From Alphaproteobacteria bacterium (GTDB lineage: Bacteria > Pseudomonadota > Alphaproteobacteria > Bin95), in contig CAXXWS020000002.1 in NCBI GenBank assembly GCA_963665325.3, forward strand, positions 448,001 through 512,000: DNA of 64,000 bases, in the 5' to 3' direction. Made by a program: the position numbers and the translations under genes. Within the stretch, counting starts at the first letter, position 1. Each line of letters opens with the position of its first letter. The notes under the pieces were generated by a model. The model made no database searches. It saw nothing but the letters and a program-made list of their open reading frames with translations, and was not told the DNA's origin. Shown in pieces: positions 4,073-62,978 of the stretch.

Positions 4073-4102
4073 CCCGCATTTCTCACCAGGGTCATGGTCT
4101 GC

Positions 4103-6297: not shown

Positions 6298-6318
6298 GCA
6301 GCAGCAGCAGCAGCAGCA
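6298..6318 (+). repeat. (GCA)7 microsatellite
   Basis: Seven perfect GCA units near the element's left end. Confidence 0.8.
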
Positions 6319-8913: not shown

Positions 8914-8939
8914 GGCAAGAACAGCCGGAGGAGGAAACG

Positions 8940-9774: not shown

Positions 9775-9872
9775 GCAGGCCGCCGCGCAGGCAAGCACCG
9801 CCGTCTCCGGCAGCAGAACCGACTTCAGCAAATAAATGCAATTTGGGGCCGTCACCTACAGGGAGCACTCCC

Positions 9873-17307: not shown

Positions 17308-17418
17308 AGCGCCGCCAACCATAACCTCCTCGCCGCGCCGCCGGTCGCTGCCCCGGCAACCCCGGAGCCGGAAATGTCCGGGGCGCCTCGGGAGGGCCAG
17401 GAAGAGGGAGGCGGCGCC

Positions 17419-28149: not shown

Positions 28150-28330
28150 CCTGGAGAATGTCGAGAAAATAGGTTGGCACACCTGTGCACCCAGGTGCAA
28201 TTCAAACTATCAACAATTTCAACGACTTATCCGGTCGATGAAATTCGGAAGGCGCGGCACACGGAACCCGGAGGACCAGCCGCCCGGTGGATGTATCCGG
28301 GGAGCACCGATCGCATGCTCCGATCGGCCA
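28150..28330. promoter_or_regulatory. Candidate oriT / relaxase promoter region
   Basis: AT-rich non-coding island between the cassette array and the relaxase genes; short inverted repeats cacctg-N6-caggtg (28180-28197) and ccgatcg...cgatcgg; nic site not identified. Confidence 0.4.
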
Positions 28331-28370
28331 TTCCTGCGCTTGCCTGTTACGTGAACACTGGGCCCTGACG

Positions 28371-36427: not shown

Positions 36428-36812
36428 TGCCTGCCTCCGGCGTGGCCCGACGAGGGCATGGACTCACGGCACCATCCTCCTCAGCTTGAGCGCAAGCGCA
36501 TTCATGGTCCAGCGCCGAATGCTGGCCCCGATCGGCGGATCGACTTTCCTTCGCGGTCTGTGCCAGGCTGCTGCTGCGCGGTGCTGAACCTCCAATGGGC
36601 GCCGCGTAGCGCCCTGGCGGAGGTCAACGACAATGCTCCGGGCGCCGCCAGGGCGCTCCTCATGAAAGCCGGGTGACGACACCCCGATCGGGAGGAGTCT
36701 TCCAGCCGCCCGATCCCCGGAAACTGGAGGCGCATCCAGGCCTGTGTCAAACTGCGATCCCGTGCCGGAGCGGCGCGGTTCGACCGTTATCGACCAGTAT
36801 GGGAACGCCGCC

Positions 36813-42107: not shown

Positions 42108-42427
42108 GCGCCGGCGATGCCTCCGGCGGGTCCGGTTCCTATCGAACCCTCGCCGACCGCTTCACGGAGCGCTACGAAGCCGACGATTCATGGTGGAGCA
42201 AGGTCGAGGAACGCTGGCGCGAGGACGACGAGGAAAACCGTATCCTGCTGGCACCCGTCTCGCGCACCGTCGACTATGGCGACATGGAAGGCTCCGACCA
42301 CCTCACCGTTACCTGGAAGGACGCCTCGGCCATCATCGTCACCTTCCTCGGAACCGAAGACGAGAACTGGGACTTCATCGACGATCACGGCCGGGTCCGG
42401 GGGGTCCGGCTCGACACCGGCCGGTAG
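42104..42427 (+). CDS. Small acidic protein coupled to the polyvalent gene
   Basis: ATGA overlap; 107 aa rich in D, E and W. Confidence 0.68.
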   Translation: MSAGDASGGSGSYRTLADRFTERYEADDSWWSKVEERWREDDEENRILLAPVSRTVDYGDMEGSDHLTVTWKDASAIIVTFLGTEDENWDFIDDHGRVRGVRLDTGR

Positions 42428-42858
42428 CTCCGGGCCCGGACGCCTGCCGCCGCATCCAGTGGTGGCATTGTTCCCGCTGGCGCGCCCCGGCGGCACAGGA
42501 GCCTGGCTTCCCTGGCATTTTCCTTCCCGGAAGTCGTTTCCGGGCCTGTGAACGGTCGTATCGCGACAAGTGTCGATCCTCCGTCACGGGCGATTCTCTT
42601 CCCGGCACAGACAGACGGCACCCATGACAGGCGGCCGGGCTGTTCCGGGAGATGGGATCGTCATGTCGCTGCTCGTCGGTTCCCGTCGCCCCTCGGCCTG
42701 TCATGTCCGGGTCGTGCCGTCCCTTCGTCCCGACAACGGCGCACCGGCGCGAACAGAGGCCTGATCCCATGGATGCTTGCGCGATCATGCATGACGAACC
42801 GGACCTGGAGGTCCGCTGGCAAAGCGGCGAGCCGACGGGTCTTCTGTCGGTTGTCTCG

Positions 42859-43251
42859 ATGTCGAAACCTGCGATCGTCGACCAGGCCGATCTCGAGTGG
42901 GAAGGCGGCGAGGACGCCAGCCTTGCCGCGGGAGAAGGGATTCGCTGGAAGGTGCTGATCGCCGGCGAGCGGACCGAGACCCGTGGCCTTGCCACCGGGA
43001 TTGCCGAGGTCGCACCGGGGGCGGAACTCATGTGTCACCGCCATGAGCCTGCCGAGATCTATTTCATCGTCAGCGGCCGGGGCGAGATGGAAATCGAGGA
43101 CCGGTCGCAGCCGGTGGGGCCCGGCTGTGCGGTCTACATCCCGCCCGACGTCAGGCACGCGCTGCGCTGCACCGGGGCGGAGCCACTCGTACTCGTGTTC
43201 GCCTTTCCCCGCGACCGCTTCGACGAGATCGCCTATCACTTCGAGCGCTGA
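42859..43251 (+). CDS. Cupin-domain protein resembling DddK/DddW DMSP lyases
   Basis: GIRWK.LI, G.AE.APG..L..HRH.PAEIY, YIP....HAL and FP.DRF.EI.Y motifs; start uncertain. Confidence 0.75.
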   Translation: MSKPAIVDQADLEWEGGEDASLAAGEGIRWKVLIAGERTETRGLATGIAEVAPGAELMCHRHEPAEIYFIVSGRGEMEIEDRSQPVGPGCAVYIPPDVRHALRCTGAEPLVLVFAFPRDRFDEIAYHFER

Positions 43252-43460
43252 CCTCCCCGGATAATGCGCGATTCGCGATACGCTGCCGGCGCCCGGCCGT
43301 AACCGTCAAACCGCCTGCGCATGCTCTGTCCGCAAGGGGATCGCCCGGCGGACAATGCCGGCCGCGATCCCGACCCACGCAAAACCGGGGCCCTGACTGT
43401 CTCATATGACTGGTACGGAAAGAATTGCAAAAGCGGGACCTTATCCGTACAGCTTTCCTC

Positions 43461-44135
43461 ATGACGGAAACGCTCATCGGATATGCGCGCTGCTCCACCG
43501 ACAGGCAGGATCTGGCCGCCCAGCGCCAGGCGCTCCTGGAGCTGGGCGTGGCCGAGGAGCGCATCTATACCGATCACGGCCTCACCGGCACGACCCGGCC
43601 CCGGCCCGGCCTGGACCAGGCCCTCGCCGCCGTGCGCGAGGGCGACACGCTCGTCGTGCCGAAACTCGACCGGCTGGCAAGGTCCGTCCCGGACGCCCGC
43701 GCCATCGCCAACCGGCTGTTGGAGCGCGGCGTAAAGCTGGCCCTCGGCCGGGCGCTCTACGACCCGGGCGGCCCGATGGGAAAGATGTTCTTCAACATCC
43801 TCGCCACATTCGCCGAGTTCGAGGCCGATCTCATCCGCACGCGCACCCGCGAGGGCATGGCCATCGCTCGCGCCAGGGGAAAACTGCGCGGCAAGCAACC
43901 CAAGCTGTCCGACAAACAGCAGCGGGAACTCTGTCGCATGCATGCTACCGGCGACTACTCCGTCAGCGACCTCGCCGAACTCTTCTCCGTCTCGAGGCCT
44001 ACCATCTATCGAACCCTCAATCGGCGCCGACCCCTTAGCACACATATCTGCTCCCTACCGGAATCCACCCGAGGAAACCGCCAAACCGCTCTCCCTAAAG
44101 CGCCAGGACGATCCTGCCAGTCGCCTAAGCGGTAA
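43461..44135 (+). CDS. Small serine resolvase/invertase (C-terminus extended through an IR)
   Basis: IGYARCST, KLDRLARS, AEFE..LI..RT.EG and HTH LAELFSVSRPTIYR. Confidence 0.93.
   Translation: MTETLIGYARCSTDRQDLAAQRQALLELGVAEERIYTDHGLTGTTRPRPGLDQALAAVREGDTLVVPKLDRLARSVPDARAIANRLLERGVKLALGRALYDPGGPMGKMFFNILATFAEFEADLIRTRTREGMAIARARGKLRGKQPKLSDKQQRELCRMHATGDYSVSDLAELFSVSRPTIYRTLNRRRPLSTHICSLPESTRGNRQTALPKAPGRSCQSPKR
44034..44071 (-). repeat. Degenerate 38-bp Tn3-family terminal IR
   Basis: Reverse complement CGGGTGGATTCCGGTAGGGAGCAGATATGTGTGCTAAG fits the GGGG...CTAAG pattern. Confidence 0.6.
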
Positions 44136-44182
44136 TACTCTGCTAGCCACGACCGTGACTTTCGAACTTGAGAGGCAAACTC

Positions 44183-44506
44183 ATGGGAAAACATTTCATT
44201 GCTGTCCTCGCGACAATCGTCTTCGTCGCAGGTTGCTCGACGCAGCAGGACAGGGAAGATCTCGCTGTCGAGTGGCGAAAGTGCGTGGACGGCATCGTTA
44301 TCGCCGGCTGGACATTGAACCAGGTGGCACCGTCATCCGACTTCGGAAAAACAACTGGGTTGGCTATCCGCCAGTGCGGAACCGGCGGTCTGAGCGCTGC
44401 CGAAAGGTTCAAGTATGTCGCGACCAGTCTAAAATCGATCCAAGAGAACGCTGACGGTTTCGTGCGCGAGTTCGAAGCGCGCGAGGACAAATCAAAAATC
44501 AATTGA
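44183..44506 (+). CDS. Small lipoprotein
   Basis: Signal peptide with lipobox VAG-C; GAGG RBS. Confidence 0.7.
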   Translation: MGKHFIAVLATIVFVAGCSTQQDREDLAVEWRKCVDGIVIAGWTLNQVAPSSDFGKTTGLAIRQCGTGGLSAAERFKYVATSLKSIQENADGFVREFEAREDKSKIN

Positions 44507-44566
44507 AATGCGGCTCGGTCCCAGAGCCGATCCGGGGTCGTTTACGGATGAGTGGCAAATGACACT

Positions 44567-45178
44567 CTAAGCGCCGAGCATGCGCTTGCCGTGGTCTCGG
44601 AGATTTCCCTGCGGATCGACATAGCGGTAAAGGGTGACAGGCGAGATTCCGAGTTCGCTGCACAGTTCCGATACCGACGTATCCTGATGCGCCATGGCCG
44701 CCTGGATCGTGCGGATCTGGGCCTTTGTCAGGGCGGGCTTCCGCCCGCCCTTGCGGCCGCGCGCCCGGGCCGCCCGAAGCCCGGCCATGGTCCGCTCGCG
44801 GATGAGCTCGCTCTCGAACTCCGCAAGCGCGGCGAAAATGCCGAAGGACAGCCGCCCGGCGGCGGTGGTCGTGTCGATCTGCGCGCCCTGGCCGGTGAGG
44901 ACCTTGAGGCCGACGCCGGCGTCCGAGAGCCCGGTCACGGTTTTCACCAGGTGATGCAGGCTGCGTCCCAGGCGGTCGAGCTTCCAGATGACGAGCACGT
45001 CGCCTTCGCGCAGCGCCTTCAGGCAGACATCGAGCCCCGGCCGCTCGTCCTTCTTGCCGGAGGCATGATCCGTATAGATTCGACGCTCCTCGACGCCGGC
45101 AGCGACCAGCGCGTCGCGCTGCAGGTCGAGCGATTGGCTGCCGTCGGCCTTCGAGACGCGGGCGTAGCCGATCAGCAT
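44567..45178 (-). CDS. tnpR: Tn3-family resolvase
   Basis: MLIGYARVS, KLDRLGRS, AEFE.ELIRERT and HTH; stop codon lies inside the IR. Confidence 0.92.
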   Translation of the reverse strand: MLIGYARVSKADGSQSLDLQRDALVAAGVEERRIYTDHASGKKDERPGLDVCLKALREGDVLVIWKLDRLGRSLHHLVKTVTGLSDAGVGLKVLTGQGAQIDTTTAAGRLSFGIFAALAEFESELIRERTMAGLRAARARGRKGGRKPALTKAQIRTIQAAMAHQDTSVSELCSELGISPVTLYRYVDPQGNLRDHGKRMLGA

Positions 45179-45345
45179 CTTTCACAAACGTTCGTTTGCG
45201 GAAGACCCCGACGGCGGCAGGCATCAAGCATGAAATCCGTTCCTTATCCCATCTCTAAAACAACAATACACAATCGCTGACGTTCGGGACAAAGGTCACA
45301 CGGTCCGTCGCACGCCCATCCCGAACAGGTAACCCCGCAGCGCAC

Positions 45346-45759
45346 TCAAGGAGCCGCCTGCGGAAGAACTGCAATATTCTCATCGTTGGCAGCCTTCGAC
45401 AGCGCGCGATCGAGCGTGGCCAGCATATCGCCCCGGCGCCACGCGGTTTCGAGATAGACGGCGTCGTAAGCGCTCAATGCATGTTTGCGGGCCATTTCCA
45501 GGACGACGCCGTGATCCTGGGTGTCGTCGCGTTCGAGATGCAGCATGCGCAGACGTGCCAGGCTGGAAAGACCGCGTTCTCGCGAGATGCGCCCACGACG
45601 TTCATTCACTATCAGGACACTGCATATCTCATGCCAGAAAAGGCCGGGCACGACGCCTCGTGCTGCCGCGAGGCCGTCCAGTACGAGATCGGCTGCCGGC
45701 GAACTCTCGCCTGGCAGGAACCAAGAGGCGGCAACCGAGGCATCGATGACGATCGCCAT
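45346..45759 (-). CDS. vapC: VapC PIN-domain toxin
   Basis: IVIDASV..W...E, LSAYDA.YL and LATLD..L motifs. Confidence 0.9.
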   Translation of the reverse strand: MAIVIDASVAASWFLPGESSPAADLVLDGLAAARGVVPGLFWHEICSVLIVNERRGRISRERGLSSLARLRMLHLERDDTQDHGVVLEMARKHALSAYDAVYLETAWRRGDMLATLDRALSKAANDENIAVLPQAAP

Positions 45760-45992
45760 CAGGCGCGCCCTTCCTCCTTCGCGGCCCGGATGTCCTCGGC
45801 AGAAACGCGGGGGCCTTCGGGCCGTTCCCGCTTGATGAGTTCGATAACCTCGGAAACAGGCCTGTCGATGGGAACGATGCGGGCTGCGGGAACCCCGTTG
45901 CGTGCCAGAATGACCTCCTGTCCCTCTTCAGCCTCAGCAATCAGGTGCGACAACCGCGCTTTGGCCTCTCCAATGTTGACGGTGTGAGACAT
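45759..45992 (-). CDS. Phd/YefM-family antitoxin
   Basis: VNIGEAKARLS.LI...E.G.EV...RNG.P.ARIVP; overlaps the toxin start. Confidence 0.9.
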   Translation of the reverse strand: MSHTVNIGEAKARLSHLIAEAEEGQEVILARNGVPAARIVPIDRPVSEVIELIKRERPEGPRVSAEDIRAAKEEGRA

Positions 45993-46099
45993 GCGCGAAT
46001 CTCCAAAGAATCGGGTTGACGTGAGCTTCCGATAACAGCGCGTTTTCGCTTGGTCAAGGCATGGTCCAGCGAGAGACCGGCGGTTGCCTCGGTTGGCCT

Positions 46100-46228
46100 T
46101 GTCGGGCGAGTATTCCATCAGTGATCTCGCCGAACTCTTCTCCGTCTCGCGGCCGACCGTTTATCGCACTCTCAACCGGCGACAATCCGCGTGACATACC
46201 GTCCTGTCCCTTGCCGGAATCGATTCAT
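46100..46228 (+). pseudogene. 3' remnant of a resolvase plus a decayed IR
   Basis: Encodes GEYSISDLAELFSVSRPTVYRTLNRR, paralogous to 43950-44030, followed by IR-like ccggaatcga. Confidence 0.75.
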
Positions 46229-46255
46229 GGATACTCGTCCGGCCGGGCTGGAGTG

Positions 46256-47776
46256 TCAGTCGAACAGATCGCCCGTCATATCCACCGTCGGCCACTTCCG
46301 GCGATGCCGAACCTCCTCGTAGCGTTCTTGCGCCAACGCTCGGGCATGTCGCGCTAATTTAACGTCTCGCATCCACCCGGCCTTGCGATTTTCATCGAAC
46401 AGACCGTGCATAGTCAGCCTCGCGCCCTTCCTTCCGTTGCATGGGCGGCAAAGCAGAACCCGATTCGAAATGTCGTTCTCGCCGCCGTCTGCGCGAGGCT
46501 GGACATGGTCAAGCTCCATGAACGGCGCTTCCAGCTCCCGGCCGCAACCGGCACACAGGACAAGCCCTTCGGTCACGCTCTGCGCCTCGGCCAACTCCCT
46601 CACGATCTCCGCACGCGACAGCCTCTGCCACGGCTCCAAGGGCAGAGCGCGCCTTTCAATGGTTCGTAGGAAGGACGCCGCGGTCTCGCCGTTGTCGGTG
46701 CGCTCCGGAAGCTCTTTCTCGTGATGAATGTCGCCAAATGACAAGCTGGCTCTCTCTTGCCCGTCCGGCCCGCGAAGCATCCCGTCCTTCTTCAGGCGTT
46801 CAATGACGACCTCGTACGCCTTCTCCCAAATGTCGATCCCGGTCCACTGCCTGCCGTTTTTCTCCGCCGCGACGCATGTCGTCGCGCAACCGGCGAACGG
46901 GTCAAGCACCATGTCACCGGGATCGCTCGAAGCCCGTATAATGCGCTCGTAAAGCGCAAGTGGCTTCTGTGTCGGGTATCCGGTTCGCTCTGACTTGGGT
47001 GCGCGGCCGATGTTGACAAGGACATCCCGCGCCGCAACTCCCTTGGAGTCGGACAGATAGAATTTACGGCGCGGCTGGCCATTCCGGGACCAGTGGATCA
47101 GTCCGTCCGCTTCCAGGCGCTCCAGACTCTCCACCGTGAAGCGCCAGTTCACGGCCTGAATCCCGCGCCACGTGAATTCATAGGTCTGGCCGGATACCCC
47201 GCCGCCCTTCAATGGCATGGTGGTGTAACGGCCCCGCTCATCCCGATCCCGATAGTTTTGCCTGATATATTCCGGTGTCAGCGGGTCGTATTGCTGGTTC
47301 CACACTGCGTGATCGGAATTGGTGTAGTAGAGAATTCCGTCATGAACACGCGCGTAGGACTTGGCATCGCTGCGACCTGCGGAGCGTTCCCAAATGATCT
47401 CGTTTCGGAAGTTCTTCCGTCCGAATATCGCGTCCATAACCGCTTTGAGGTAGTGAGATGCAGCATCATCGCAGTGCAGATAGATGCTGCCTGTCCGCTT
47501 CAGGATACGGCGCATTTCCAATAGCCGAACGGCCATGAAGCACATAAAGGCCCCCATGCCGTCCGAGTGTGCGTAGCGAGCGCTCTCGATAGCCTCCATG
47601 AGCCGGGGATAGTCGTCGGTGATCTGGTCAACCCAGTCCTGCTGCACGTCATCCTTCCACGACCACCGGTCCTGAAACTTTGCACCCCTGGCGAGGCTAT
47701 CTGGCGTTGCATGGAAATCCCGGCCTTTATTGAAAGGCGGGTCCGTTGCAATCAGATCCACGCACGCGCTGTTCAT
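46256..47776 (-). CDS. Beta-class N6/N4 DNA methyltransferase fused to a C-terminal HNH domain
   Basis: DPPF, YPTQKP and LDPFAGCATT motifs; then CAGC...LDHVQPR..GG.N...N...LC..CN..K. Confidence 0.9.
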   Translation of the reverse strand: MNSACVDLIATDPPFNKGRDFHATPDSLARGAKFQDRWSWKDDVQQDWVDQITDDYPRLMEAIESARYAHSDGMGAFMCFMAVRLLEMRRILKRTGSIYLHCDDAASHYLKAVMDAIFGRKNFRNEIIWERSAGRSDAKSYARVHDGILYYTNSDHAVWNQQYDPLTPEYIRQNYRDRDERGRYTTMPLKGGGVSGQTYEFTWRGIQAVNWRFTVESLERLEADGLIHWSRNGQPRRKFYLSDSKGVAARDVLVNIGRAPKSERTGYPTQKPLALYERIIRASSDPGDMVLDPFAGCATTCVAAEKNGRQWTGIDIWEKAYEVVIERLKKDGMLRGPDGQERASLSFGDIHHEKELPERTDNGETAASFLRTIERRALPLEPWQRLSRAEIVRELAEAQSVTEGLVLCAGCGRELEAPFMELDHVQPRADGGENDISNRVLLCRPCNGRKGARLTMHGLFDENRKAGWMRDVKLARHARALAQERYEEVRHRRKWPTVDMTGDLFD

Positions 47777-47963
47777 GGCGCGAAGGAAGTCAAGATTGTC
47801 CCCTTGGAAGAGGGTCCGGTTGGACCAATTCGGCCTGGCTTCATTGAGTCGGCGGTCGGCGGTCCCTTTTTCACCTTATCCCGTGCCATATCGGAGGTCC
47901 AATTCGAGTTGTTCGCGCAGCTTCGGAAATGCCCGCCGATCGACAGTCGATCAACGCAGGCGG

Positions 47964-48200
47964 TCAACCTTGTGCCGCGAGCCGGTGAGCACGGGCGCGG
48001 ACGTGTTCGGGGCGTCGGCGCAGGCGGGGATCGTGACGGCATTCCACCATCCGTCGCGGGCCGCTATCGAGGTCGGCGTCTATGCCGTGCGCTTCGAAGT
48101 AATCCCGCTCAAGCTCGCCCGCTTCGCGGGTGTTGCACTCGAACCAGAATAGCGGCCTGCCGTCAGCATCGTAGATGGTCAGCACATGCACATACATCAT
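47964..48200 (-). CDS. Small hypothetical protein
   Basis: ATGA-coupled to the upstream ORF. Confidence 0.45.
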   Translation of the reverse strand: MMYVHVLTIYDADGRPLFWFECNTREAGELERDYFEAHGIDADLDSGPRRMVECRHDPRLRRRPEHVRARAHRLAAQG

Positions 48201-48403
48201 GGATATCCGTCGCGCCTTTCCCTGTTGAGTCTGCGCCAGTCGTCGAGGCAGGCCGGGCAATACTGCCGGTCGCCTTCGGTGTTGATTTCGTCGAGCGGGT
48301 CGAGGCAGCGTTCGCAATACGGCTCGCTGAGCGGCTGTCCTGCCAGAAGGCAGGCGTCCATCTGTCGGCTGTTGGCGTCGCGCCGGTCGCGCCAGTCGGG
48401 CAT
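48197..48403 (-). CDS. Small zinc-ribbon protein
   Basis: CERC...CPAC motif. Confidence 0.5.
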   Translation of the reverse strand: MPDWRDRRDANSRQMDACLLAGQPLSEPYCERCLDPLDEINTEGDRQYCPACLDDWRRLNRERRDGYP

Positions 48404-48548
48404 TGCGTTTCGTCCGATTGCAGCCGGTGTTGCACGGCTGCGAGTTCATTGAGTTCGGTTTGCCATCGTTGCGATGAGCGGGCGAAGCAGCCGCATAGCG
48501 TAATGGGAGGTGCACAATGACGGAACTGGAAGCAATTCAAAACGCCGG

Positions 48549-49235
48549 TCACTGACGGCCGGCAGCCGCCGATATCTGTTCTCCGATCAGGGAATCGAGC
48601 TCGGAAATGCGGCCCTTAGCGGCCAGTTCGAGGGCCGCCAGGACGAAAGCCGGGCTTGCCGGCGCCAGGACAGCGGAGACTGTCAGCTCCTCCGGCCCGC
48701 CTGGAGCCTGGAGGTCGAGCAGAATGGCCTCCCTGGTGTTTCCGGCTATGTCCAGCCGCCACATTTCGGGAACGCCCAGACGGCGGTAGAAATCGGGTTT
48801 GTCCCCGTCTCCATGGCTGCGTTCGACCTCGATGACGAGATCGGGCGGCGTCCGGGCTTCGAAGTCCCGGACCTTGTCCGCTTCCCGCCGATCCGCCTCG
48901 ATCCAGCGGTCGGCCGTCGAGCCCAGATAGTAGCATGCGTCAGGTTCGGCGCCCGTGTTCTCCGGGTCGCCCGGAAGCCGCCACCGCGTCGATCCGAGAC
49001 CGATCGCATTGACCCCGAGGCTTCTGCCCATGGCATCCATGAACCGGTCGGCGCCCCGGCTGTAGCGCTCGTGCTCCGGAGACGGCGTCATCAGCGCTAC
49101 GAGCCCGCTCACAGGGTCGATAAAGACCCTCCTGGCGATAATGTCCCAGTCGAGCTTCGCGAGGAGCGGGATCGCTTCGGGATCGAGATGCAGGCGGGTG
49201 TATTCCGATCCCATGCTGCCGATGGTGCGTTCCAT
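48549..49235 (-). CDS. Uma2 (DUF820) PD-(D/E)xK nuclease-like protein
   Basis: M.PS.EHE, EPDACYY, PPDLVIEV, K..FY..LGVPE.W..D. Confidence 0.88.
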   Translation of the reverse strand: MERTIGSMGSEYTRLHLDPEAIPLLAKLDWDIIARRVFIDPVSGLVALMTPSPEHERYSRGADRFMDAMGRSLGVNAIGLGSTRWRLPGDPENTGAEPDACYYLGSTADRWIEADRREADKVRDFEARTPPDLVIEVERSHGDGDKPDFYRRLGVPEMWRLDIAGNTREAILLDLQAPGGPEELTVSAVLAPASPAFVLAALELAAKGRISELDSLIGEQISAAAGRQ

Positions 49236-49338
49236 GCCGGTTCTCCCGCTTGCAGGCGGCCGCTTTCACCCCGACATTACCGGTGAATTCGTCGCCGGGG
49301 AAATCCTGAAGCCGGGCGAACATGTACGGAAGCGGGCG

Positions 49339-50121
49339 CTATTGCAGCAGCCGCTTGATCCGGTCCTGCCAGGTCCGGGTATGAATGATCCTGTCTCGGT
49401 GCAGATTGCCTTCCAGGATTTCCGCCTTTGTCATTTGCGATACCCGATGCCAGTCCAGGTCGAAGACATAAGTGGCGTTGTCGAGCATGGCGCTCTCAAG
49501 GACTGCAAGCCCCCTGGTCCTGAATATGTATGCGACATAGGCTCTGAAGCCCCGTTCGCCGATGTAAATTTCATCGGGGCCGAAGGAGGCGAGTGTCTCG
49601 AGCCGTGACAGGACCGGGGCAGATGCGAGCGGATCGCCGGATTCGAGAATCCTGGTGACGCGTTGGTGGATCTGGCTCCACGGGTATTGGCCAGGAGGCA
49701 GGAGAGACCAGTTTGCGTTGCGGATCGTGGGCGACGGTTCCGCGCCGGCAGGCGGGAAAAGGCTGGGGGGTTGAGGCCTGTCCTTGGACTGTTCGCCGCC
49801 AGGGGCCTGGGTGGCCATGCCGAAATATTCGAGCCAGGAAGGGTCGAGAGTTTCCCTGGCGGTCGGCATCGTCTCGAGGACGAGGGAAACAAGGCGCCGG
49901 CCCTGGTCCCTGCAGTCGGGTGACGGGCAGATAGCAACCAGTCCCCAAGGATAGCGGCCGTCGGCAGCGGCTTTCCCGTCATGGGCCTCGATCCTGAACC
50001 AGCCGGGCTCGGCGTAGCATGTACGCCCGCAGAGCGAGCAGGACATGTGGCCGGAAACGGTCTGCTTTCCGAGAAGGGACTCGATTTCGTGCAGGCCGCG
50101 GGGGCATTCCAGTTTACGCAT
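49339..50121 (-). CDS. Hypothetical protein: N-terminal Cys cluster plus a globular C-terminal domain
   Basis: C/H/C/C ribbon; F..Y..Y.F...AVLES...NATYVF...W...S..TK.EIL...RIIH...W. Confidence 0.7.
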   Translation of the reverse strand: MRKLECPRGLHEIESLLGKQTVSGHMSCSLCGRTCYAEPGWFRIEAHDGKAAADGRYPWGLVAICPSPDCRDQGRRLVSLVLETMPTARETLDPSWLEYFGMATQAPGGEQSKDRPQPPSLFPPAGAEPSPTIRNANWSLLPPGQYPWSQIHQRVTRILESGDPLASAPVLSRLETLASFGPDEIYIGERGFRAYVAYIFRTRGLAVLESAMLDNATYVFDLDWHRVSQMTKAEILEGNLHRDRIIHTRTWQDRIKRLLQ

Positions 50122-50205
50122 GGAGTCGACCCGTCAGAGTGTCATTCGCCACTCATGCGGAATCGACCCAAATGCGGGCAAGGCGCCCGTCGAACTTCCT
50201 TTGCA

Positions 50206-51759
50206 TCACCTTCCCCGAACCTTGATCGTGCAATCCACGTACCCGCTTTCGTCTTGTTCCGCCCGCTGGAAACACCCCCTTATGGCCGAACCGTAGTGCT
50301 CCCAGATATGGTCCTTCCAGCCCAGGGTGGGGTCCGCCCGGGGCAGGAACGGCAAGCGGCTCTGGACCGCCGCGCCGCCGGCGAAGAAAACCAGCGCCAG
50401 CGCCGCCGCCGCCAGTGCCGTCCTTGCCACACGCCGGCGTCCCCGCCTGCGATCCACGGCGATGACGGCCGTCGAGCCCGACAGCATTTCCATCTGCGGG
50501 CCCATCTTCGCGCTCCATGCCTCGATCCTGTCCACGACGCCGCGAATGCCGTCCAGGTTCTCGGCCAGGTTGGCGACCGACTCCTCGCTGAGCCTGTTTC
50601 CCGCCCCGATTTCCTTCTCGGCTTCGGCGTCACTTTGCCTCCTGGCGTCCAATGTCGACTCGCCCGATCCCTCGGAACCGTCCTCCTCGTCTGCAGGGCT
50701 TTCCCGGTTCGCCTGCGGCCCCGTCTCCGGTTCGTCCCGGGCGGCCTCGGCGCGCTCTTCCCCGGCAGGGCTCACTTTACGGCTTCCCGACATCATCTCC
50801 TTGCCTAGCTTGACGGCCTTGCCTGCCACTCCCTTCGCGATATCGAGCCCCTTCTTTGCCTTTCCAGGTCGTGGGGCTGCCGTTTCCGCTTCGCCCGCCC
50901 CTCCTTCGCCTTCGCCTCGACCCGGCGCCCCGCGCTCGTCGTCATCGACATCGGCATCCGGATATCCGCTTGCAGCGTGCGCCCCGCCAGGCGCGTCGCG
51001 GCCTCTTTCCGTTCCGGTCCCGCTTTCAGCTTCCACGCGAGGCATCCCGGACCGGTCGGCGCCCCCGGCCGTCTCTGCAACCTCTCCGTAGCGGTCGGTC
51101 GCTCCAGACCCGGTCACCTTGGCGATCGCCCCGGCCAGAGCCGCATCCGTCTGGCCGTCGTCGGCTTGCCCTTCGGGGACAGCTTCCGGCTCCCGGCTCG
51201 TGTCCGGGCCTTGCCCTACACTTTCGATTTCCAAGCCATCATCCGGGTCCCGGTATTCTCCCTCGCCTTCCGACAGAATCAGGCCGGTCTCCGTGTCGTA
51301 TCTGTCGCCGGAGGGAGTCACCGACACAGCGCGCGTTCCGGCCCCGTCGCCGGCGCCCGGCGCCTCTTCCATGGCCGCGTCATTCGGCGGAGGTTCCGCT
51401 GCCCGTTCCGGCTCGGTGCTGTCCTGCGGGGCCGGGTTGTCGGCGTCCTCAGCCGGCGACGTTTCGACAGCGGTCTCCACACCCCCATCGCCGACCGCTT
51501 CGCTCAGGATTTTCCGCGCTGCCGTCCTCGCCTCTTCGAGGTTCATGTCTGCGTAGCGGGCGATCCGGATCCGGCGGCTCCGGACTTTCCCATCCTCCTG
51601 CCTCGTCCTGGCACTGACGATCCACGATTTTGTTCCCGAAGGCAGGATACGTAATCCGAAACCGGCCAAACCCTCGTCCCAGGCGACCCACTCCCTTTCC
51701 TTGGGCTTCAATGCATCGACGCTCGCCTGATCGAACTCAAACCTCCCTGACATCATCAC
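50206..51759 (-). CDS. Integrase arm-type DNA-binding domain, acidic linker, TM helix and small extracytoplasmic domain
   Basis: WD..L.GFGLRI.PSGTKSW...R..I..Y..M.LEEAR..A; no R-H-R-Y catalytic domain; TM segment ALAAAALALVFFAGGAAV. Confidence 0.8.
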   Translation of the reverse strand: MMMSGRFEFDQASVDALKPKEREWVAWDEGLAGFGLRILPSGTKSWIVSARTRQEDGKVRSRRIRIARYADMNLEEARTAARKILSEAVGDGGVETAVETSPAEDADNPAPQDSTEPERAAEPPPNDAAMEEAPGAGDGAGTRAVSVTPSGDRYDTETGLILSEGEGEYRDPDDGLEIESVGQGPDTSREPEAVPEGQADDGQTDAALAGAIAKVTGSGATDRYGEVAETAGGADRSGMPRVEAESGTGTERGRDAPGGAHAASGYPDADVDDDERGAPGRGEGEGGAGEAETAAPRPGKAKKGLDIAKGVAGKAVKLGKEMMSGSRKVSPAGEERAEAARDEPETGPQANRESPADEEDGSEGSGESTLDARRQSDAEAEKEIGAGNRLSEESVANLAENLDGIRGVVDRIEAWSAKMGPQMEMLSGSTAVIAVDRRRGRRRVARTALAAAALALVFFAGGAAVQSRLPFLPRADPTLGWKDHIWEHYGSAIRGCFQRAEQDESGYVDCTIKVRGR

Positions 51760-51801
51760 CTCCCGCTACAGCCTTTCGTCGCACAGTTCCGGCTCACGCT
51801 G

Positions 51802-52403
51802 GCGCGCCATGGAGCGGCCGTGGATTCCTGGAGCGCGCCCGTGGCGCTGGACCGCGCGCCATGGAGCGGCCGTGGATTCCTGGAGCGCGCCCGTGGCGCT
51901 GGACCGCGCGCCATGGAGCGGCCGTGGATTCCGTGGCGCGCGCCCGTGGGGCTGGCCCGCGCGCCATGGAGCGGCCGTGGATTCCTGGAGCGCGCCCGTG
52001 GGGCTGGCCGCGCGCCATGGAGCGGCCGTGGATTCCGTGGCGCGCGCCCGTGGGGCTGGCCCGCGCGCCATGGAGCGGCCGTGGATTCCTGGAGCGCGCC
52101 CGTGGCGCTGGACCGCGCGCCATGGAGCGGCCGTGGATTCCTGGAGCGCGCCCGTGGGGCTGGACCGCGCGCCATGGAGCGGCCGTGGATTCCTGGAGCG
52201 CGCCCGTGGGGCTGGCCGCGCGCCATGGAGCGGCCGTGGATTCCGTGGCGCGCGCCCGTGGGGCTGACCGCGCGCCATGGAGCGGCCGTGGATTCCGTGG
52301 CGCGCGCCCGTGGGGCTGACCGCGCGCCATGGAGCGGCCGTGGATTCCGTGGCGCGCGCCCGTGGGGCTGGCCGTGCGCCATGGAGCGGCCGTGGATTCC
52401 TGG
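51802..52403. repeat. Non-coding tandem array, 12 copies of a 51-53 bp unit
   Basis: Invariant core ccatggagcggccgtggattcc at 51807, 51859, 51911, 51964, 52015, 52068, 52120, 52172, 52223, 52275, 52327 and 52379. Confidence 0.97.
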
Positions 52404-52445
52404 GGCGCAGCCGGCTCCACTGCTTCGTCGGTTTTCCGCCGAGCC

Positions 52446-54488
52446 TCACTCTGCCGCTGCCGGCATGGACGCCGCCGGGCCGAGGCGCTTGCGTATCTTC
52501 CCGATTTCCTGCGCAAGGTCCCGGTCGAACCGGTCCAGTTCCGACATGGCCTCCCGCCGGCGCAGCAGTCCGGCTGCTTTGAGCTTCCGCTCCACATAGG
52601 GATTGGGATCGGCATCGCCTCGCAGCGCGGCATGCTCCCAGTAGCGGGTGATGGCGAGCCGCATGGCGTCCCTCGGGAGCTCCTTGGAGGCGGCGATCAC
52701 ATACTGCTCGTCCGGTTTCATCATCACCAGGTCCTCGGGGCGCACGATGCGCTCCTTGACGAGGTTGCGGCTGTCGCCGGTGGTGACCTTGTTGGCGGCG
52801 AGCAGGACCGAGCGGCCCATGGGCGTGCCGGAGGAGGTCTGGGTGTAGCCCTCGAAGGTGGCGTGGCCGATGGCCTTGGAGACTTCCTCCGCGCCGGCGG
52901 CGTCCGCGCGCGACCAGCCGAGGATCTGGACGACTTCGGAGAGGTCGATCATCTCCTGGCGGCGCTGCTTGCCCCAGCTGCCGTCGATCCCGGAGAGCGC
53001 CTGGGCGAAGGCCCAGAAATGGACGCCGCGCCCGGCGCCCGTCCTCCAGGCGTCCATGACGGGTTCGAGGTAGCCGACGGCCGGCATCTCGTCCATGACG
53101 ACCAGCATGTCCTTCTTCAGAGACCGGCGGGCGGCGACGGCGAACGGGATCGCGATCCAGAGCCTGAGCCAGGGGCGCGCCGCCTTGAGGACCTCCTCCG
53201 GCACCACGACGAAGATGTCCATGTTGCCTTCGGCCAGGTCGTGCGGATCGAATGTGCTGGCCGCCGTCTGCGCCTGGATCTTCGGATGCGCCAGGAACTG
53301 CATCTGGTTGGCGATCGTGGTGTAGTTCGAACCGCTCTCCTGCTTGCCGATGGCCTGCTCGGACTCCATGGCGCGGTGCGCGAGCCCGCCGGCGAACATG
53401 TCGCCCTCGAGGATCTGCGCCATCAGTGCGCTGCGCCTGTCGGGACCGGCCGAGAGGTTGTCGAACACGTGGGCCAGGTTCCGCTTCTCCTTCTCCGCCC
53501 CATAGGCCGCCCAGGCGATATGGCCGGAGATCAGGCGCTTGGCGCTCTCGTGGAAATGGCGGCTGTTGCCGCCGTCGTTCGCGGGCGGCGTGAGCAGGCC
53601 CTGGACGAGCACATCGACATCCTGGACGGCCTTCTCCTCGCCGCGCAGGAAATCGAGCGGGTTGTAGGTGTGCTTCTTCGCGAAGCGCGGCAGGTGGCAA
53701 TGGGGATGCTGTTCGCGGTGGCGGTCGATAACGCCATAGGGGTCGAGCAGGATGACCTCGCGGCCGAGCTCGCGCCGGCGGCGGGCGACGATCGGATAGA
53801 GCTCGCCGCGCGGGTCGATGGTGACGGTCGAGCCCTGCCAGCCGCGCCCGTGGGGGGCCAGCATGTTGGCGGCGATGAGCGCGCCCTTGCCGGTGCGGGG
53901 CGGGGCGATGGTGACGGCATGGCCCTCGAGCGGCCAGACGGCGAGCGGGGCGCGGCTGCCGGGCCCGGTCTGGCCGAGCAGGATGCCGTCCTGGCGCCGC
54001 GCGAGCTTCCGGAGATGGCGCGCGCCCATGAGCTTCGAGGCGCCGTGGAGCTCGGACTTCGACCGCCTGCGCCTGGCGATCCGCCCGGCGCCGGTGAGCG
54101 CGGTCAGCAGCGCTACCAGCCAGAGGAACCCGAGCAGGGGCGCGATGAGCAGCGGCGCCGCCAGCCGGAACGCGTCGATCGCCGCGCTGCCCTTGGCCAG
54201 CGCCAGGACCCCGCCGAACTCGCCGGCGAGCAGGAACGGCGCCGTGTCGATCGCGATCGACATGGCGGCGATGGCGGCCGTCGGTCCCCAGACGCCGATC
54301 TTCCAGCCGAGGCCGCCGCGCTTGAGCTCGGTGAACAGCAGCACGGCGAGCGAGGCCGCGGCCATGCCGGCAAGCGCCCAGCCCCGCAGCTCCGGATCGG
54401 GCCGTTCGGTCCAGAGCCACCAGACGAGGCCGGCGCCCGGAATGCCGGTCGCCAGCGCCAGGCCCAGATGGGTTGCAAATCCGCCCAT
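52446..54488 (-). CDS. virD4: Type IV coupling protein, VirD4/TraG family
   Basis: N-terminal TM helices, HGA motif, APPRTGKG Walker A, DPRGEL, YNPLD and VMDEM Walker B. Confidence 0.9.
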   Translation of the reverse strand: MGGFATHLGLALATGIPGAGLVWWLWTERPDPELRGWALAGMAAASLAVLLFTELKRGGLGWKIGVWGPTAAIAAMSIAIDTAPFLLAGEFGGVLALAKGSAAIDAFRLAAPLLIAPLLGFLWLVALLTALTGAGRIARRRRSKSELHGASKLMGARHLRKLARRQDGILLGQTGPGSRAPLAVWPLEGHAVTIAPPRTGKGALIAANMLAPHGRGWQGSTVTIDPRGELYPIVARRRRELGREVILLDPYGVIDRHREQHPHCHLPRFAKKHTYNPLDFLRGEEKAVQDVDVLVQGLLTPPANDGGNSRHFHESAKRLISGHIAWAAYGAEKEKRNLAHVFDNLSAGPDRRSALMAQILEGDMFAGGLAHRAMESEQAIGKQESGSNYTTIANQMQFLAHPKIQAQTAASTFDPHDLAEGNMDIFVVVPEEVLKAARPWLRLWIAIPFAVAARRSLKKDMLVVMDEMPAVGYLEPVMDAWRTGAGRGVHFWAFAQALSGIDGSWGKQRRQEMIDLSEVVQILGWSRADAAGAEEVSKAIGHATFEGYTQTSSGTPMGRSVLLAANKVTTGDSRNLVKERIVRPEDLVMMKPDEQYVIAASKELPRDAMRLAITRYWEHAALRGDADPNPYVERKLKAAGLLRRREAMSELDRFDRDLAQEIGKIRKRLGPAASMPAAAE

Positions 54489-54634
54489 GGCGTTCCTTCC
54501 TTCGGAGCTTGTCTGCATTTCCGGTCATGCGGTTGTTCCGGGGGCCGACCCCGACCCGACCCGTCAATCCGGGGCGGCCGAAGCCGCCCCGATCTCCTTT
54601 ATTTTCTTCATCGTGCTGCTCCAGTCGGCGATCT

Positions 54635-56956
54635 TCACAGCCCGTCATCCACGGGCGATTGCGGGCCCGGCCCCCCGCGGCCGGTCGGCAGCCGCCCGCC
54701 GCCGCGCCCTCTTTGACCGACCCGCATCGGTCCGACGCGCCCGAACGCGCCCGCGATGCCGCCGCCGAGGCGGTCGGCCTCGCCGTCCCTGCCGTCGCGC
54801 CCGCCGATCCAGTCCATGGCGATCGAGGGCAGGTGGTCGATCAGCTTGAAACAGCCGTTCATCAGCCCGTAGACGGTCATCAGGTAGATCGCCAACATGG
54901 CGAGCCAGCCGAGCACGCCGATCCCGTCCGAGGCGCCGGCGTCGAACACGAGGCCCCGGAACACGTCGTTGAAGGTGTCCATGATCGTGACGAACAGCAG
55001 GTAGCCAGTGACGAGGCCGAACAGCATCAGCACCGGGCGCAGGATCAGCCCGGGCAGGAAGAGCCAGCCCTGGCGGGTCGCCTGCGTGACGAACCCCTCG
55101 CCGCGCACGGTGTGGCCGGCGAGCCAGACCGGCATGGCGAACACGGCCGCGATGACGGCGACCAGCCAGGCGAGCAGGCCGAACAGGAACCGCAGGAACG
55201 GCAGCACCGGCACGAGATAGGCCAGCACCAGGCCGGCCAGGATCATCACGCCCAGTATGGTCGAGATGAAGCTGTCCATGACCTGCCATGCCGCCTCGAA
55301 CGCATCCAGCCCGCCGCCGATGAGCGGGATGGAGTTCAGCAGGTTCGATCCCGTCGCAAGGCCGCCGAGCAGCAGAATCGAGCCGAGCGCCTTGGTGACC
55401 AGGCTGTGTCCGAGCGAGACCAGGTCCAGGATCGGGTTGCCGCTGTCGACCAGCTGGATGTCCTCGATGTCGAGCCAGTCGAAGGAGCCGCGCCCGATCC
55501 CGCCGATGCCGCCGGAGCCGGGCGCGGGGTCCGCGCCGGCGCCCAGCACGGCCGGATATTCGAGCGAGCCGGCAAGCTGCTCGGCCGCCGCGGTCACCGC
55601 CGCGCTCGCCTGCGGGACGCGCTCGCCGAGCCGTGCGGACGGGCCCGCAACCCTCGGAATGCTTCCCGCGCCCAACTGGTATTCGCCGACATGGCGGGTT
55701 ATGGTCATGAACAGCGAGGCCGCGAGCGTCCAGGGGCTGTTCTTCGCCTCCTCCTGCAGCGCCTCTTCGAGCGCGTTCGTGGCCTCGTCCCGGGTCGAGT
55801 CCGCCGCCGCCCTCACGGTCGCCAGATACGTCCCGAGCGGATCGGCGCCGACCAGCAGCGCCTCGATATCGGGCAGCGGGCCGTCATTGCGCACCGTGCC
55901 GGGGGGTGCGGCAAACCATAGGGCCACCCGGTCCGCAATGGCGCCCAGCGCCGGACGGATGGCGTCGAACGCGGCGCTCTGGGCCTCCGCCATCTTTCCG
56001 CCTGGCGTCACGCCGCCGTCGAGGCCCGACAGCCTGACGCTGCCGCACATGCCCTTCGGCATGCCGCCGGCCTTGCCGTCATAGCTTAGCGTCCGGAAGC
56101 CCCGGCCCCTGTAGGCCCTTCTCTGCTGCTGCAGGGGGCTGGACCTCTGCGTCTCCGTCACCTCGACATAGGGCGGGTCGCCGACCTCCCGGGCCGCCAG
56201 GTTGGCGGTGCGCGCGCAGAGTTCCGCCAGGAAGATCCCCGCAATGGCGGCCCGGAGCGGGCGCTGGTGCGGCGCCGGCGCCACCATGGTCCCGTTGCCG
56301 AGCACGTCGCGGGAGAACTCGCCCCAGACGATCTGGGCGATATCGCCGCCGGTGCGGGCGAGCGAGAGCGCGATATGCTGGCCGCCGGAGAGCCCGCCGG
56401 CGAGCGGGACCATGAGCAGGAACGCGGCCACGATCCGGAGCGTCTCCTTGCCGGTGAACCCCCAGCGGCCCCGGCTTGCGGTATCGACCGTGCCGGCCGC
56501 CGTCCACCAGACGAGCAGCACGCCGGCGAGAACCAGGATCGCGCCGTTGTAGATCGTCAGCATGCCGGAGAGCGCGGTATTGTTGCCGGCATCGAGATCG
56601 GAGAGGAACGCCAGCAGGGCGCGTCCCGCTTGATCGGGCTCGCCCGACAGGTCCGGGACGGGCGGTGTCTGGGCCTCCGCCGGCGAGGACCCTGTCCACA
56701 TGGCGAGCGCGGCCATGGCGATCCATATCAGCCCGGCGAGCGCCATGGCGACGCCGAGCCAGCCGAGCGGCCCGCGCGGGCGCGGCAGTCCGCTCTTGCC
56801 GCGCCGACGTGGCAGTCCGCCTCCCGCTCCCTGCGGCCGTCGCAGGCCGCCGGATATCGTGCGCAGCAGGCCGGCGGCGTCCCCGAGCGCCCGCGCGGCC
56901 GGGCCGAACAGATCGGGCAGCAGGATATAGCGGGCGAGGGAGGGACGGCGCGCCAT
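54635..56956 (-). CDS. DotA/TraY-family membrane protein
   Basis: T..TA..G...LR...A..L..P..GG.S..Q; C-terminal L.Y.VP.LPF..F, P.W...H and RP.LM.FG..L...P...WIG motifs. Confidence 0.85.
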   Translation of the reverse strand: MARRPSLARYILLPDLFGPAARALGDAAGLLRTISGGLRRPQGAGGGLPRRRGKSGLPRPRGPLGWLGVAMALAGLIWIAMAALAMWTGSSPAEAQTPPVPDLSGEPDQAGRALLAFLSDLDAGNNTALSGMLTIYNGAILVLAGVLLVWWTAAGTVDTASRGRWGFTGKETLRIVAAFLLMVPLAGGLSGGQHIALSLARTGGDIAQIVWGEFSRDVLGNGTMVAPAPHQRPLRAAIAGIFLAELCARTANLAAREVGDPPYVEVTETQRSSPLQQQRRAYRGRGFRTLSYDGKAGGMPKGMCGSVRLSGLDGGVTPGGKMAEAQSAAFDAIRPALGAIADRVALWFAAPPGTVRNDGPLPDIEALLVGADPLGTYLATVRAAADSTRDEATNALEEALQEEAKNSPWTLAASLFMTITRHVGEYQLGAGSIPRVAGPSARLGERVPQASAAVTAAAEQLAGSLEYPAVLGAGADPAPGSGGIGGIGRGSFDWLDIEDIQLVDSGNPILDLVSLGHSLVTKALGSILLLGGLATGSNLLNSIPLIGGGLDAFEAAWQVMDSFISTILGVMILAGLVLAYLVPVLPFLRFLFGLLAWLVAVIAAVFAMPVWLAGHTVRGEGFVTQATRQGWLFLPGLILRPVLMLFGLVTGYLLFVTIMDTFNDVFRGLVFDAGASDGIGVLGWLAMLAIYLMTVYGLMNGCFKLIDHLPSIAMDWIGGRDGRDGEADRLGGGIAGAFGRVGPMRVGQRGRGGGRLPTGRGGPGPQSPVDDGL

Positions 56957-62448: not shown

Positions 62449-62978
62449 ATCGGCACCGCCTGGACGCCGAGCGTCTCCTGAAGGGCGCGGACCAGGCCCG
62501 CCATGTGCCAGGCGAGCACGCCGCCCAAGAGGTGCGAGCCGGCCTGCGCCAGCGTCGCCTGGCCGCGCCCGTCCACCGCGTGCTTCAGCACGAACAGGCC
62601 GCGCATGAACGCGAACACGCCGATCCACGCCACCACGGTGAACGCCGCCTGGACCGCGGCGCCGAAGCGCGCCCACTCGCCCGAGGCGGGCGGGATCCAC
62701 GCCACCGCCGCCGCCGCCTCGCGCTCGGCGCCGAACAGCGACTCGCCGCCCGCGGCCAGCACCGCCGGCAGCTGGGCCAGCAGCGGCGCCAGCAGGAACA
62801 GCATCGCCGTGCCCGTCGCCGTGCCGGGCCAGTGGCCGCCCGCATGGCGCAACAGGCGCAGGCACGCCCCCAGGAAGCAGAACGCCGCGAGCGCATAGCA
62901 GACCCAGGTCATCAGCGTCCGGAGCGCCGGGTCGACGTTCTCGACCAGCGCCCGGAAGGCCTCCTCCAGACCGTTCAT
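62445..62978 (-). CDS. IcmC/DotE (TraQ)-like membrane protein
   Basis: Four TM helices; IG..AF.RG...L...H..GG.LA....TLG motif. Confidence 0.7.
   Translation of the reverse strand: MNGLEEAFRALVENVDPALRTLMTWVCYALAAFCFLGACLRLLRHAGGHWPGTATGTAMLFLLAPLLAQLPAVLAAGGESLFGAEREAAAAVAWIPPASGEWARFGAAVQAAFTVVAWIGVFAFMRGLFVLKHAVDGRGQATLAQAGSHLLGGVLAWHMAGLVRALQETLGVQAVPI

Follow-up and report, generated by a model that had tools for sequence, protein, structure and literature searches.

What might an integrase-type arm domain do in a protein that has no recombinase domain and carries a membrane anchor instead, encoded beside the coupling protein of a conjugative element? This question is raised by a 64,000-nt stretch of alphaproteobacterial DNA (GenBank assembly GCA_963665325.3, contig CAXXWS020000002.1, positions 448,001 to 512,000), all of which is referred to here as the window, with a G+C content of 60–75% and carrying a conjugative element. 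On its minus strand a DotA/TraY-like gene is followed by the gene for a type IV coupling protein (T4CP), a 46-nt spacer, a tandem array, a second spacer of 43–49 nt and a 517-amino acid (aa) open reading frame (ORF), confirming the order (T4CP stop, an array of about 600 bp, then the arm-domain gene) given in an earlier prediction made from the letters of this DNA alone (the original prediction). We posit, with a probability of roughly 0.4, that this ORF encodes a membrane-anchored adaptor of the TraM or StbA kind, which would bind the array and dock on its own T4CP's C-terminal tail. Array binding, tail binding and a role in transfer are what we infer from the anatomy, family, synteny, mosaic evolution and co-variation observed.

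The anatomy originally described for this protein, comprising an arm domain, an acidic linker, a transmembrane (TM) helix and a small two-Cys domain with no catalytic domain, is confirmed and marks out a conserved family. The sole domain that Pfam identifies in the 517 aa is Arm-DNA-bind_3 (PF13356; residues 12–87, 9.9e-10), and by Pfam a recombinase core-binding or catalytic domain (PF00589) is absent. An AlphaFold model built with 26 family sequences shows a head (residues 1–90) with a predicted local distance difference test (pLDDT) score of about 90, a largely disordered linker (pLDDT below 50), and helices at residues 392–431 (long), 441–468 (including the TM segment) and 481–502 (C-terminal). 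Foldseek places the head closest to 3ju0, 3jtz and 3rmp_C (E 1.4e-4 to 7.7e-4, TMt 0.68–0.88), the arm-type binding domains of the HAI7 and HPI P4-like integrases, and the title of PDB entry 3rmp concerns attP substrate recognition; a profile search of the PDB with the arm protein gave a weak match only, again in the arm domain (3jtz, E 0.46). The protein thus shares fold and Pfam family with P4-like integrases over residues 3–90 but, lacking core-binding and catalytic domains, cannot recombine DNA. Judging by its homologues, translation probably begins at the ATG at 51753 (MSGRFEFD...), which would give a protein of 515 aa.

Between head and membrane lies a linker that is acidic (residues 91–390: 23% D+E, net charge -40, pI 4.2) and about 300 aa long, as originally described; it is not featureless, since the family alignment reveals conserved short islands within it. 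The protein has one hydrophobic segment only, at about residues 447–465 (Kyte-Doolittle maximum 2.11 at residue 447), with 7 Arg in the preceding 10 residues. Topology prediction accordingly gave a single TM helix with the N-terminus inside and the C-terminus outside, and because the arginines lie on the N-terminal side of this single segment, the DNA-binding head is predicted to be cytoplasmic. The best-conserved part of the family is the C-terminal 49 aa (DPTLGWKDH..W..YG....C...A.....G...C...VR.R), in which C496 and C510 are invariant and which reaches pLDDT 80–96 in a model of the C-module, the unit made up of the juxtamembrane helix, TM helix and periplasmic domain. The C-module has no Pfam or NCBIfam match, neither it nor the 49-aa domain has a fold match in the PDB, and PADLOC returned nothing for the C-module or for the whole protein. 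G+C content at third codon positions (GC3) is lower in the arm domain (0.74) and the linker (0.71) than in the helix-TM-periplasmic part (0.85), and reaches 0.92 in the T4CP gene, which fits a different or more recent origin of head and linker.

A word-indexed search returned 27 clusters of full-length relatives (38–80% identity), which are annotated with PF13356 only, while an exhaustive HMMER search of 1.84 billion representatives yielded 15 clusters at E up to 1e-30. Weaker HMMER matches were mostly confined to the arm domain and many were to proteins of integrase length, the integrases aligning to residues ~3–140 of the arm protein only. Five short proteins (P0104, P0109, P0113, P0155 and P0058) consist of the helix-TM-periplasmic module without an arm domain, and family members of 239–283 aa have short linkers, so that linker length ranges from ~30 to ~350 aa across the family. 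The existence of short-linker and arm-less relatives shows that the linker is a tether of variable length and the C-module an independent unit. Searches of the plasmid database PLSDB matched the arm protein through its arm domain only, to integrases, and its nearest sequence relatives outside the family were alphaproteobacterial integrases with 31–46% identity over that domain. The same database held no match for the C-module or for a short relative, no DNA match to the 6-kb region or to the array, and T4CP relatives of 31% identity at most, indicating that this element family is absent from that collection. Full-text literature searches returned no account, in connection with conjugation, of a membrane-anchored protein with an arm domain. 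The family is undescribed and its C-module is covered by no curated family. MobB of R1162/RSF1010 is a small membrane-associated conjugation accessory protein, and membership of the C-module in Mobilization_B (PF17511) or DUF6118 (PF19613) was considered and rejected: the Atlas feature scores of 0.80–0.82 lie in the range of shuffled proteins, and hmmscan at E up to 10 found neither family in the C-module or in six short relatives.

The array upstream of the arm gene had been described as twelve 52-bp units. Tandem Repeats Finder reports a single array there (period 52, 11.7 copies, 95% matches, score 1050), and parsing along the minus strand resolves it into 11 full units of 51, 52 or 53 bp, from 52400 down to 51829, with a twelfth that is a half unit only (27 bp, 51828–51802); the unit length therefore stands, the count of twelve full units does not. 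Each unit joins an invariant half of 27–29 bp to a variable half that occurs in a few variants, irregularly interleaved. The invariant 27-mer occurs 12 times in the 64 kb, every time within the array (expected 0.00), and shorter sub-motifs of the unit are matched elsewhere at chance level only. The array was held to be non-coding, and it is, because 52 is not a multiple of 3 and G+C is flat across codon positions (0.78–0.79 at each position in all frames; for comparison, the T4CP gene has a GC3 of 0.92 and the arm gene one of 0.75 overall). The several CCRTGG-like boxes originally noted in each unit were also recovered: the 607-bp array contains 40 copies of CCAYGG in one orientation (65.9 per kb; outside the array the window has 1.21 per kb), with 3–4 co-oriented boxes per unit. 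Sub-repeats inside the unit exceed those of shuffled sequences (p 0.006–0.04). Folded as single-stranded DNA, units of this array perform no better than shuffles (z -1.3 and +1.0), and a hairpin or cruciform reading was dropped as the main explanation; RNA folds of the whole array are slightly better than shuffles (z about -2). Rfam gave no match at E up to 1 in 49000–55000, no sigma-70-like promoter was predicted in 49200–52700, and terminator-like sites in the latter interval occur at chance level. An assembly artefact is disfavoured, as both the irregular interleaving of unit variants and the second array described below argue against it.

A separate repeat in the window shares a short sequence with the array. 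The 12-mer CCAGGAATCCAC is common to the array unit junction and to copies at 22756 and 22777, where a 21-bp DNA repeat (22754–22801) carries it within a 122-aa ORF (22697–23065, plus strand) encoding tandem 7-residue repeats (..FQEST..) and a hydrophobic segment. The sharing was judged coincidental, the 22756 and 22777 copies lying inside the coding (FQEST) tandem repeat of this small ORF.

A scan of species-representative genomes returned a single further locus, L001, from an alphaproteobacterial metagenome-assembled genome, so that arrays can be compared across the family at two loci. L001 has the same arrangement, with a DotA-like gene, a T4CP gene (7376–9670), an array (9724–9933) and a homologue of the arm gene (about 10007–11566), and the order T4CP, array, arm gene thus holds in both. 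The expectation that homologues would lie downstream of an array and beside a T4CP is accordingly borne out at 2/2 loci; on indirect grounds, a large array seems to be missing from at least one member of the family. The L001 array has a period of 62 bp (3.4 copies, 91% matches) and ends ~74 nt before the start codon of the homologue. Its unit is unrelated in sequence to the 52-bp unit, bears GGAAACC-like boxes with inverted pairs (p 0.004–0.03), and folds as single-stranded DNA at z -2.1 relative to shuffles. No second copy of the arm domain or the C-module was found with local hidden Markov models in the window or in L001, and with no second arm-domain ORF there is no P4-type integrase partner in the 64 kb or in L001.

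Comparison of the two loci reveals a sharp boundary. DNA identity is ~90% from the T4SS (type IV secretion system) genes through the T4CP gene up to window position 52550, and collapses from there, roughly 100 bp before the T4CP stop. Divergent are the T4CP tail, the array, the array flanks (no alignment) and the arm domain (42% identity); past 52550 the arm gene aligns with L001 in two islands only, a linker motif and the TM/periplasmic part. Joint change of array and arm domain is the pattern expected if these were a cognate reader and site. Both the arm domain and the juxtamembrane helix resolve into two deep clades by maximum likelihood (I and II for the arm domain, 100/100 support; A and B for the helix, 100/99), and the two trees are mutually incongruent: P0003 has the helix sequence of the window protein (100% identity) with an arm domain of the other clade, and the arm domain of P0016 clusters tightly with that of the window protein, its helix being of the other type. 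Three of the four possible clade combinations occur in the two trees, and L001, with an arm domain closer to clade II, would supply the fourth. This incongruence indicates that the head is a swappable cassette, exchanged by recombination apart from the rest of the protein.

The same data bear on the possibility that the array serves a different protein. Under such a reading it would be a centromere-like or other cis-acting site for, for example, the ParB-like protein encoded elsewhere in the element, and the arm protein would bind at another place such as the origin of transfer (oriT) or arm-type sites in an attachment site beyond the window. A dozen ~50-bp tandem units with an internal imperfect inverted repeat do resemble plasmid centromeres, sopC of F being 12 x 43 bp; a ParA and a weak ParB_N protein are present with no obvious repeat cluster beside them, and arm domains normally read sites within attP. 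The array nevertheless lies 40 kb from the parAB genes (9456–11599), unlike the arrangement of SopB and sopC, and occupies the same slot beside the arm gene at both loci. It also changes together with the arm domain between the window and L001, the T4SS staying ~90% identical, and the potential of the window unit to form inverted repeats or hairpins is not above that of shuffles. We consider this reading very unlikely.

The position of the array exactly where the identity of the sister elements breaks down would also suit a fast-evolving neutral or RNA-level repeat, such as a spacer similar to repetitive extragenic palindromes or an mRNA-stability element, located at a recombination junction and adjacent to the arm gene by accident. 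The main task of the protein would then reside in the C-module, for instance as an inner-membrane accessory of the T4SS or a factor akin to entry exclusion; the IncI exclusion gene (ExcA) adjoins traY. Unit sequence, period and copy number are indeed unconserved, the arm-less short relatives show that the C-module occurs alone and so has a function of its own, and whole-array RNA folds reach the z of about -2 given above. It is however hard to see two unrelated arrays arising independently in one slot of 0.3–0.7 kb without selection. There is furthermore no Rfam family match, the boxes are enriched about 50-fold and strictly co-oriented, and the DNA-binding head is retained across the 27 clusters. 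As for exclusion, conservation is highest in the periplasmic domain, whereas a determinant of exclusion specificity should show the opposite. On balance an incidental repeat appears distinctly improbable.

The product of the gene upstream of the array has the NTPase domain and the N-terminal anchor of a T4CP, with Pfam matches to T4SS-DNA_transf (PF02534, 1.6e-39), TraG-D_C (PF12696, 3.8e-16) and TrwB_AAD_bind (PF10412, 1.4e-7) and hydrophobic segments within residues 44–148; translation probably starts 10 codons downstream of the ORF start, homologues being 680 aa. Its relatives form 25 full-length clusters at >=73% identity, roughly matching the 27 arm-protein clusters in number, and the next group, at ~50% identity, is far larger. 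Eleven pairs of T4CP and arm protein could be assembled, two of them proven neighbours (the window and L001) and nine inferred from contigs of equal size; the contig of one inferred pair is 4,627 bp long, leaving no more than about 1.1 kb between the two genes. Two types, A and B, are distinguished among the final 40 residues of the T4CP. As a side observation, the B-type full-length arm protein P0016 (517 aa) and P0179, a 148-aa protein 99% identical to the C-module of the window protein, are listed on contigs of equal size (5,378,753 bp), so that a single genome may contain the module twice or in two variants.

When the 11 pairs are compared with one another, the identity of the T4CP tail closely tracks that of the arm protein's juxtamembrane helix (r=0.93, Mantel p=0.0005), and the relationship persists when the T4CP core is removed (partial r=0.94). 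Correlation of the tail with other parts of the arm protein is r=0.86 for the second half of the linker, r=0.45 for the TM/periplasmic part and r=0.17 for the arm domain. The arm domain and the array lie between tail and helix on the DNA, yet the co-variation of these two holds across them. Within the T4CP, the tail correlates with its own core at r=0.45 and the core with the N-terminal region at r=0.91. These relationships are suggestive of co-evolution between tail and helix, short of proof of contact. A complex prediction with the T4CP (690 aa) and residues 385–517 of the arm protein, for which controls were not folded, scored 0.00 against a mark of 0.32 and counts neither for nor against contact.

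The layout of the arm protein could also be that of a membrane-bound one-component regulator in the style of ToxR or CadC, with the periplasmic two-Cys domain sensing an envelope, redox or mating signal and the arm domain switching a promoter embedded in the array, that of its own gene or of the end of the transfer operon, without any recruitment of DNA. ToxR binds tandem repeats, and both ToxR and CadC have periplasmic cysteines. The arm protein shares their bitopic layout, having an N-terminal cytoplasmic DNA-binding domain, one TM helix predicted to be oriented N-in, and two cysteines in a small periplasmic domain. Within the family no part is better conserved than this domain, as would be expected of a sensor or of a docking module, and the array ends 43–49 nt (window) or ~74 nt (L001) before the start codon. 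Set against this, the head has the integrase arm fold and no OmpR-type winged helix-turn-helix domain (Trans_reg_C) by Pfam, and the absence of further unit or half-unit sites in the 64 kb would reduce the regulon to the arm gene itself, with no sigma-70-like promoter predicted in the interval searched. A linker of ~300 aa, far longer than in ToxR or CadC, and 12 units with 40 boxes go far beyond the needs of an operator, and a regulator located in a T4SS operon leaves the co-variation with the T4CP tail unexplained. We regard a purely regulatory role as unlikely.

The adaptor reading, which we favour, draws on known systems of conjugation. In F-like plasmids, the specificity of TraM for DNA and its selective binding to TraD's C-terminal tail together set the specificity of conjugation (PMC3159463). 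TraM is a DNA-binding accessory with repeated sites upstream of its own gene and a second surface for the T4CP tail (PMC3159463), and the swappable modules and the co-variation of T4CP tail and helix seen here mirror this logic of two determinants. TraM differs in being a small soluble ribbon-helix-helix tetramer acting on sbm sites within oriT, whereas the arm protein combines an arm fold, a ~300-aa linker, a TM helix, a periplasmic domain and an array of 52-bp units with no mapped oriT nearby. No TraM or ribbon-helix-helix domain is matched by Pfam in the arm protein, and there is no sequence or fold relationship to TraM. StbA of R388 binds the stbDRs, 9-bp repeats arranged as two groups of five with 2-nt spacing (PMC3098194). 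It likewise acts on a cluster of direct repeats, located in the transfer region, and it governs plasmid position and balances stability against conjugation (PMC3098194). StbA is nonetheless small and soluble, has no membrane anchor and recognises 11-bp-phased 9-mers at a promoter next to oriT; neither Pfam nor NCBIfam identifies the StbA family in the arm protein. The original prediction had likened the function to that of StbA. Our data favour the analogy with TraM and TraD over a segregation device of the StbA type, although one does not preclude the other. By function the protein would fall into an established class, that of accessory DNA-binding adaptors between element DNA and T4CP, and the recruitment of the domain would be what is unusual.

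More specifically, we propose a bitopic inner-membrane protein whose cytoplasmic arm-type head, probably borrowed from P4-like tyrosine integrases, would read the short boxes of the array. The second half of the linker and the juxtamembrane helix would dock on the C-terminal tail of the T4CP, whose gene lies just upstream, and head and docking region together could fasten the DNA of the element to its own coupling protein at the membrane. The long acidic tether may give the head access to DNA lying tens of nanometres away from the membrane, and binding beside its own start codon would probably also autoregulate the arm gene. Two independently exchangeable specificity keys are envisaged, the arm domain with the array and the helix with the T4CP tail.

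Several observations weigh against this proposal. The co-variation comprises 11 pairs, nine of them paired by equal contig size, and is largely driven by the B-type lineage (2 pairs), which may be a single lineage; for the 9 A-type pairs alone the correlation is r=0.79 (p=0.011) and the partial correlation r=0.60 (p=0.05). Functional coupling could also be mimicked by block inheritance if the arm cassette were replaced separately. Only two arrays were compared, and unit sequence, period and copy number differ between them (~12 x 52 versus 3.4 x 62). Periods of 52 and 62 bp are both compatible with ~10.4 bp per helical turn, these being two data points only, and the boxes are unevenly spaced (11/19-20/13/9 bp) such that simple phasing on one face of the helix is not evident. 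Not every family member appears to have a comparable array: the short-linker relative P0045 lies inside a long spurious ORF in which no periodic peptide is found in the 360 upstream codons, from which we conclude that it lacks a large upstream array (a 3-unit array would escape this test), and the 72-codon upstream extension of P0003 is likewise without 52-bp periodicity. The relaxase genes (28287–35974) are at least 16 kb from the array, and a role in the relaxosome is thus not anchored to the nick site. Finally, autoregulation lacks a mapped promoter, none being predicted in or near the array.

Table 1. Coordinates of the arm-domain protein, the array and associated features in the window
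Feature	Position	Strand	Basis and remarks
Membrane-anchored arm-domain protein gene, 517-aa ORF from GTG	50206..51759	-	ORF, homologues, alignment
Arm-type DNA-binding domain, residues 3–90	51490..51753	-	PF13356, model, Foldseek; predicted cytoplasmic
Acidic, mostly disordered linker, residues 91–390	50590..51489	-	Composition, pLDDT, conserved columns
Conserved cytoplasmic juxtamembrane helix, residues 391–435	50455..50589	-	Models; co-varies with T4CP tail
Arg-rich stop-transfer stretch and single TM helix, residues 436–468	50356..50454	-	Kyte-Doolittle
Small periplasmic domain, residues 469–517	50209..50355	-	Invariant columns, C-module model; topology predicted
Tandem array	51802..52408	-	Tandem Repeats Finder, unit parsing; proposed binding platform for arm domain
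Type IV coupling protein (VirD4/TraG type), 690-aa ORF	52446..54518	-	Pfam, NCBIfam TraG/VirD4 models
T4CP C-terminal tail, last 40 residues	52449..52568	-	Hypervariable, types A and B; proposed docking peptide
DotA/TraY-family inner-membrane T4SS protein	54635..56956	-	NCBIfam TIGR04346 DotA_TraY 4.2e-71; directly upstream of T4CP
DotG/TraO-like protein	62975-63976		NCBIfam search
ParA	9456-10538		
ParB-like protein	10535-11599		Weak ParB_N

The surrounding element encodes a replication-type protein containing DnaA_N, a ParA, a weak ParB, a large serine recombinase and two TrwC-type relaxase ORFs, and from its sequence its transfer system is classed as type IVB or IncI-like. The two TrwC-domain ORFs are consecutive on the plus strand and overlap start to end (28287–29627, 446 aa; 29621–35974, a 2117-aa relaxase-helicase), and could represent a duplicated or split relaxase. 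Between ordinary metabolic genes (1–5820) and the DnaA_N-type gene (6949–8913), a 236-aa ORF (5763–6473, plus strand) matches the first 108 of 348 positions of an isocitrate/isopropylmalate dehydrogenase profile; it may have been truncated by insertion of the element and mark its left end. Two paralogous proteins with DUF7146 and Toprim_3 domains are encoded in the element (17374–18447 and 25478–26776, plus strand), and short tandem repeats occur inside the DnaA_N-type ORF (8146–8218, 23 bp x 3.2) and at 18867–18965 (33 bp x 3).

Downstream of the arm gene, the window and L001 have no related genes before one for a giant protein, encoded on the opposite strand. This 1787-aa protein (36744–42107, plus strand) contains a YAcAr (SLOG) domain, a NADAR domain that matches the anti-phage NADAR model of NCBIfam (5.6e-35) and a weak stretch resembling DprA; it is ~52% identical in L001 (13500–18956, minus strand) and convergent with the arm gene at both loci. 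The ~8 kb between arm and giant genes in the window (42100–50200) have no L001 counterpart, the gap there being ~2 kb, and in sequence look like cargo inserted right after the arm gene. They encode a Phd/YefM antitoxin (45759–46118), a fusion of an N6/N4 methylase with HNH (46256–47776), a Uma2-family nuclease that also matches the PADLOC candidate PDC-S17 (48549–49235) and a Cys-rich 260-aa protein without a family (49339–50121).

To our knowledge, the selection of DNA for export and its handover to the coupling protein are understood in few plasmid models (TraM-TraD in F and StbA/StbB in R388 are examples), and we know of essentially nothing on the same question for type IVB-like elements of environmental Alphaproteobacteria. 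If the array proved unrelated to the protein, the finding would shrink to a new family of accessory proteins with an unusual domain fusion. A bolder possibility, which we regard as doubtful and put forward tentatively, is a membrane-bolted substrate selector with two keys, in which the recombinase-less arm domain would act as a programmable reader, the array would be a loading pad and the pairing of helix and T4CP tail a lock, with both keys exchanged among sister elements as a code of cis-preference or incompatibility for conjugation. Because both keys recombine among sister elements with nearly identical T4SS, the module of such a selector would decide which co-resident element a given secretion machine exports, and the array could also be a membrane-attached centromere for the excised element. 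Should the arm protein bind both the array and the T4CP tail, it would mean that the arm domain of tyrosine integrases can be redeployed without a recombinase as a stand-alone programmable DNA reader, that substrate recruitment can be hard-wired to the membrane, and that the specificity of DNA export can evolve through cassette exchange.

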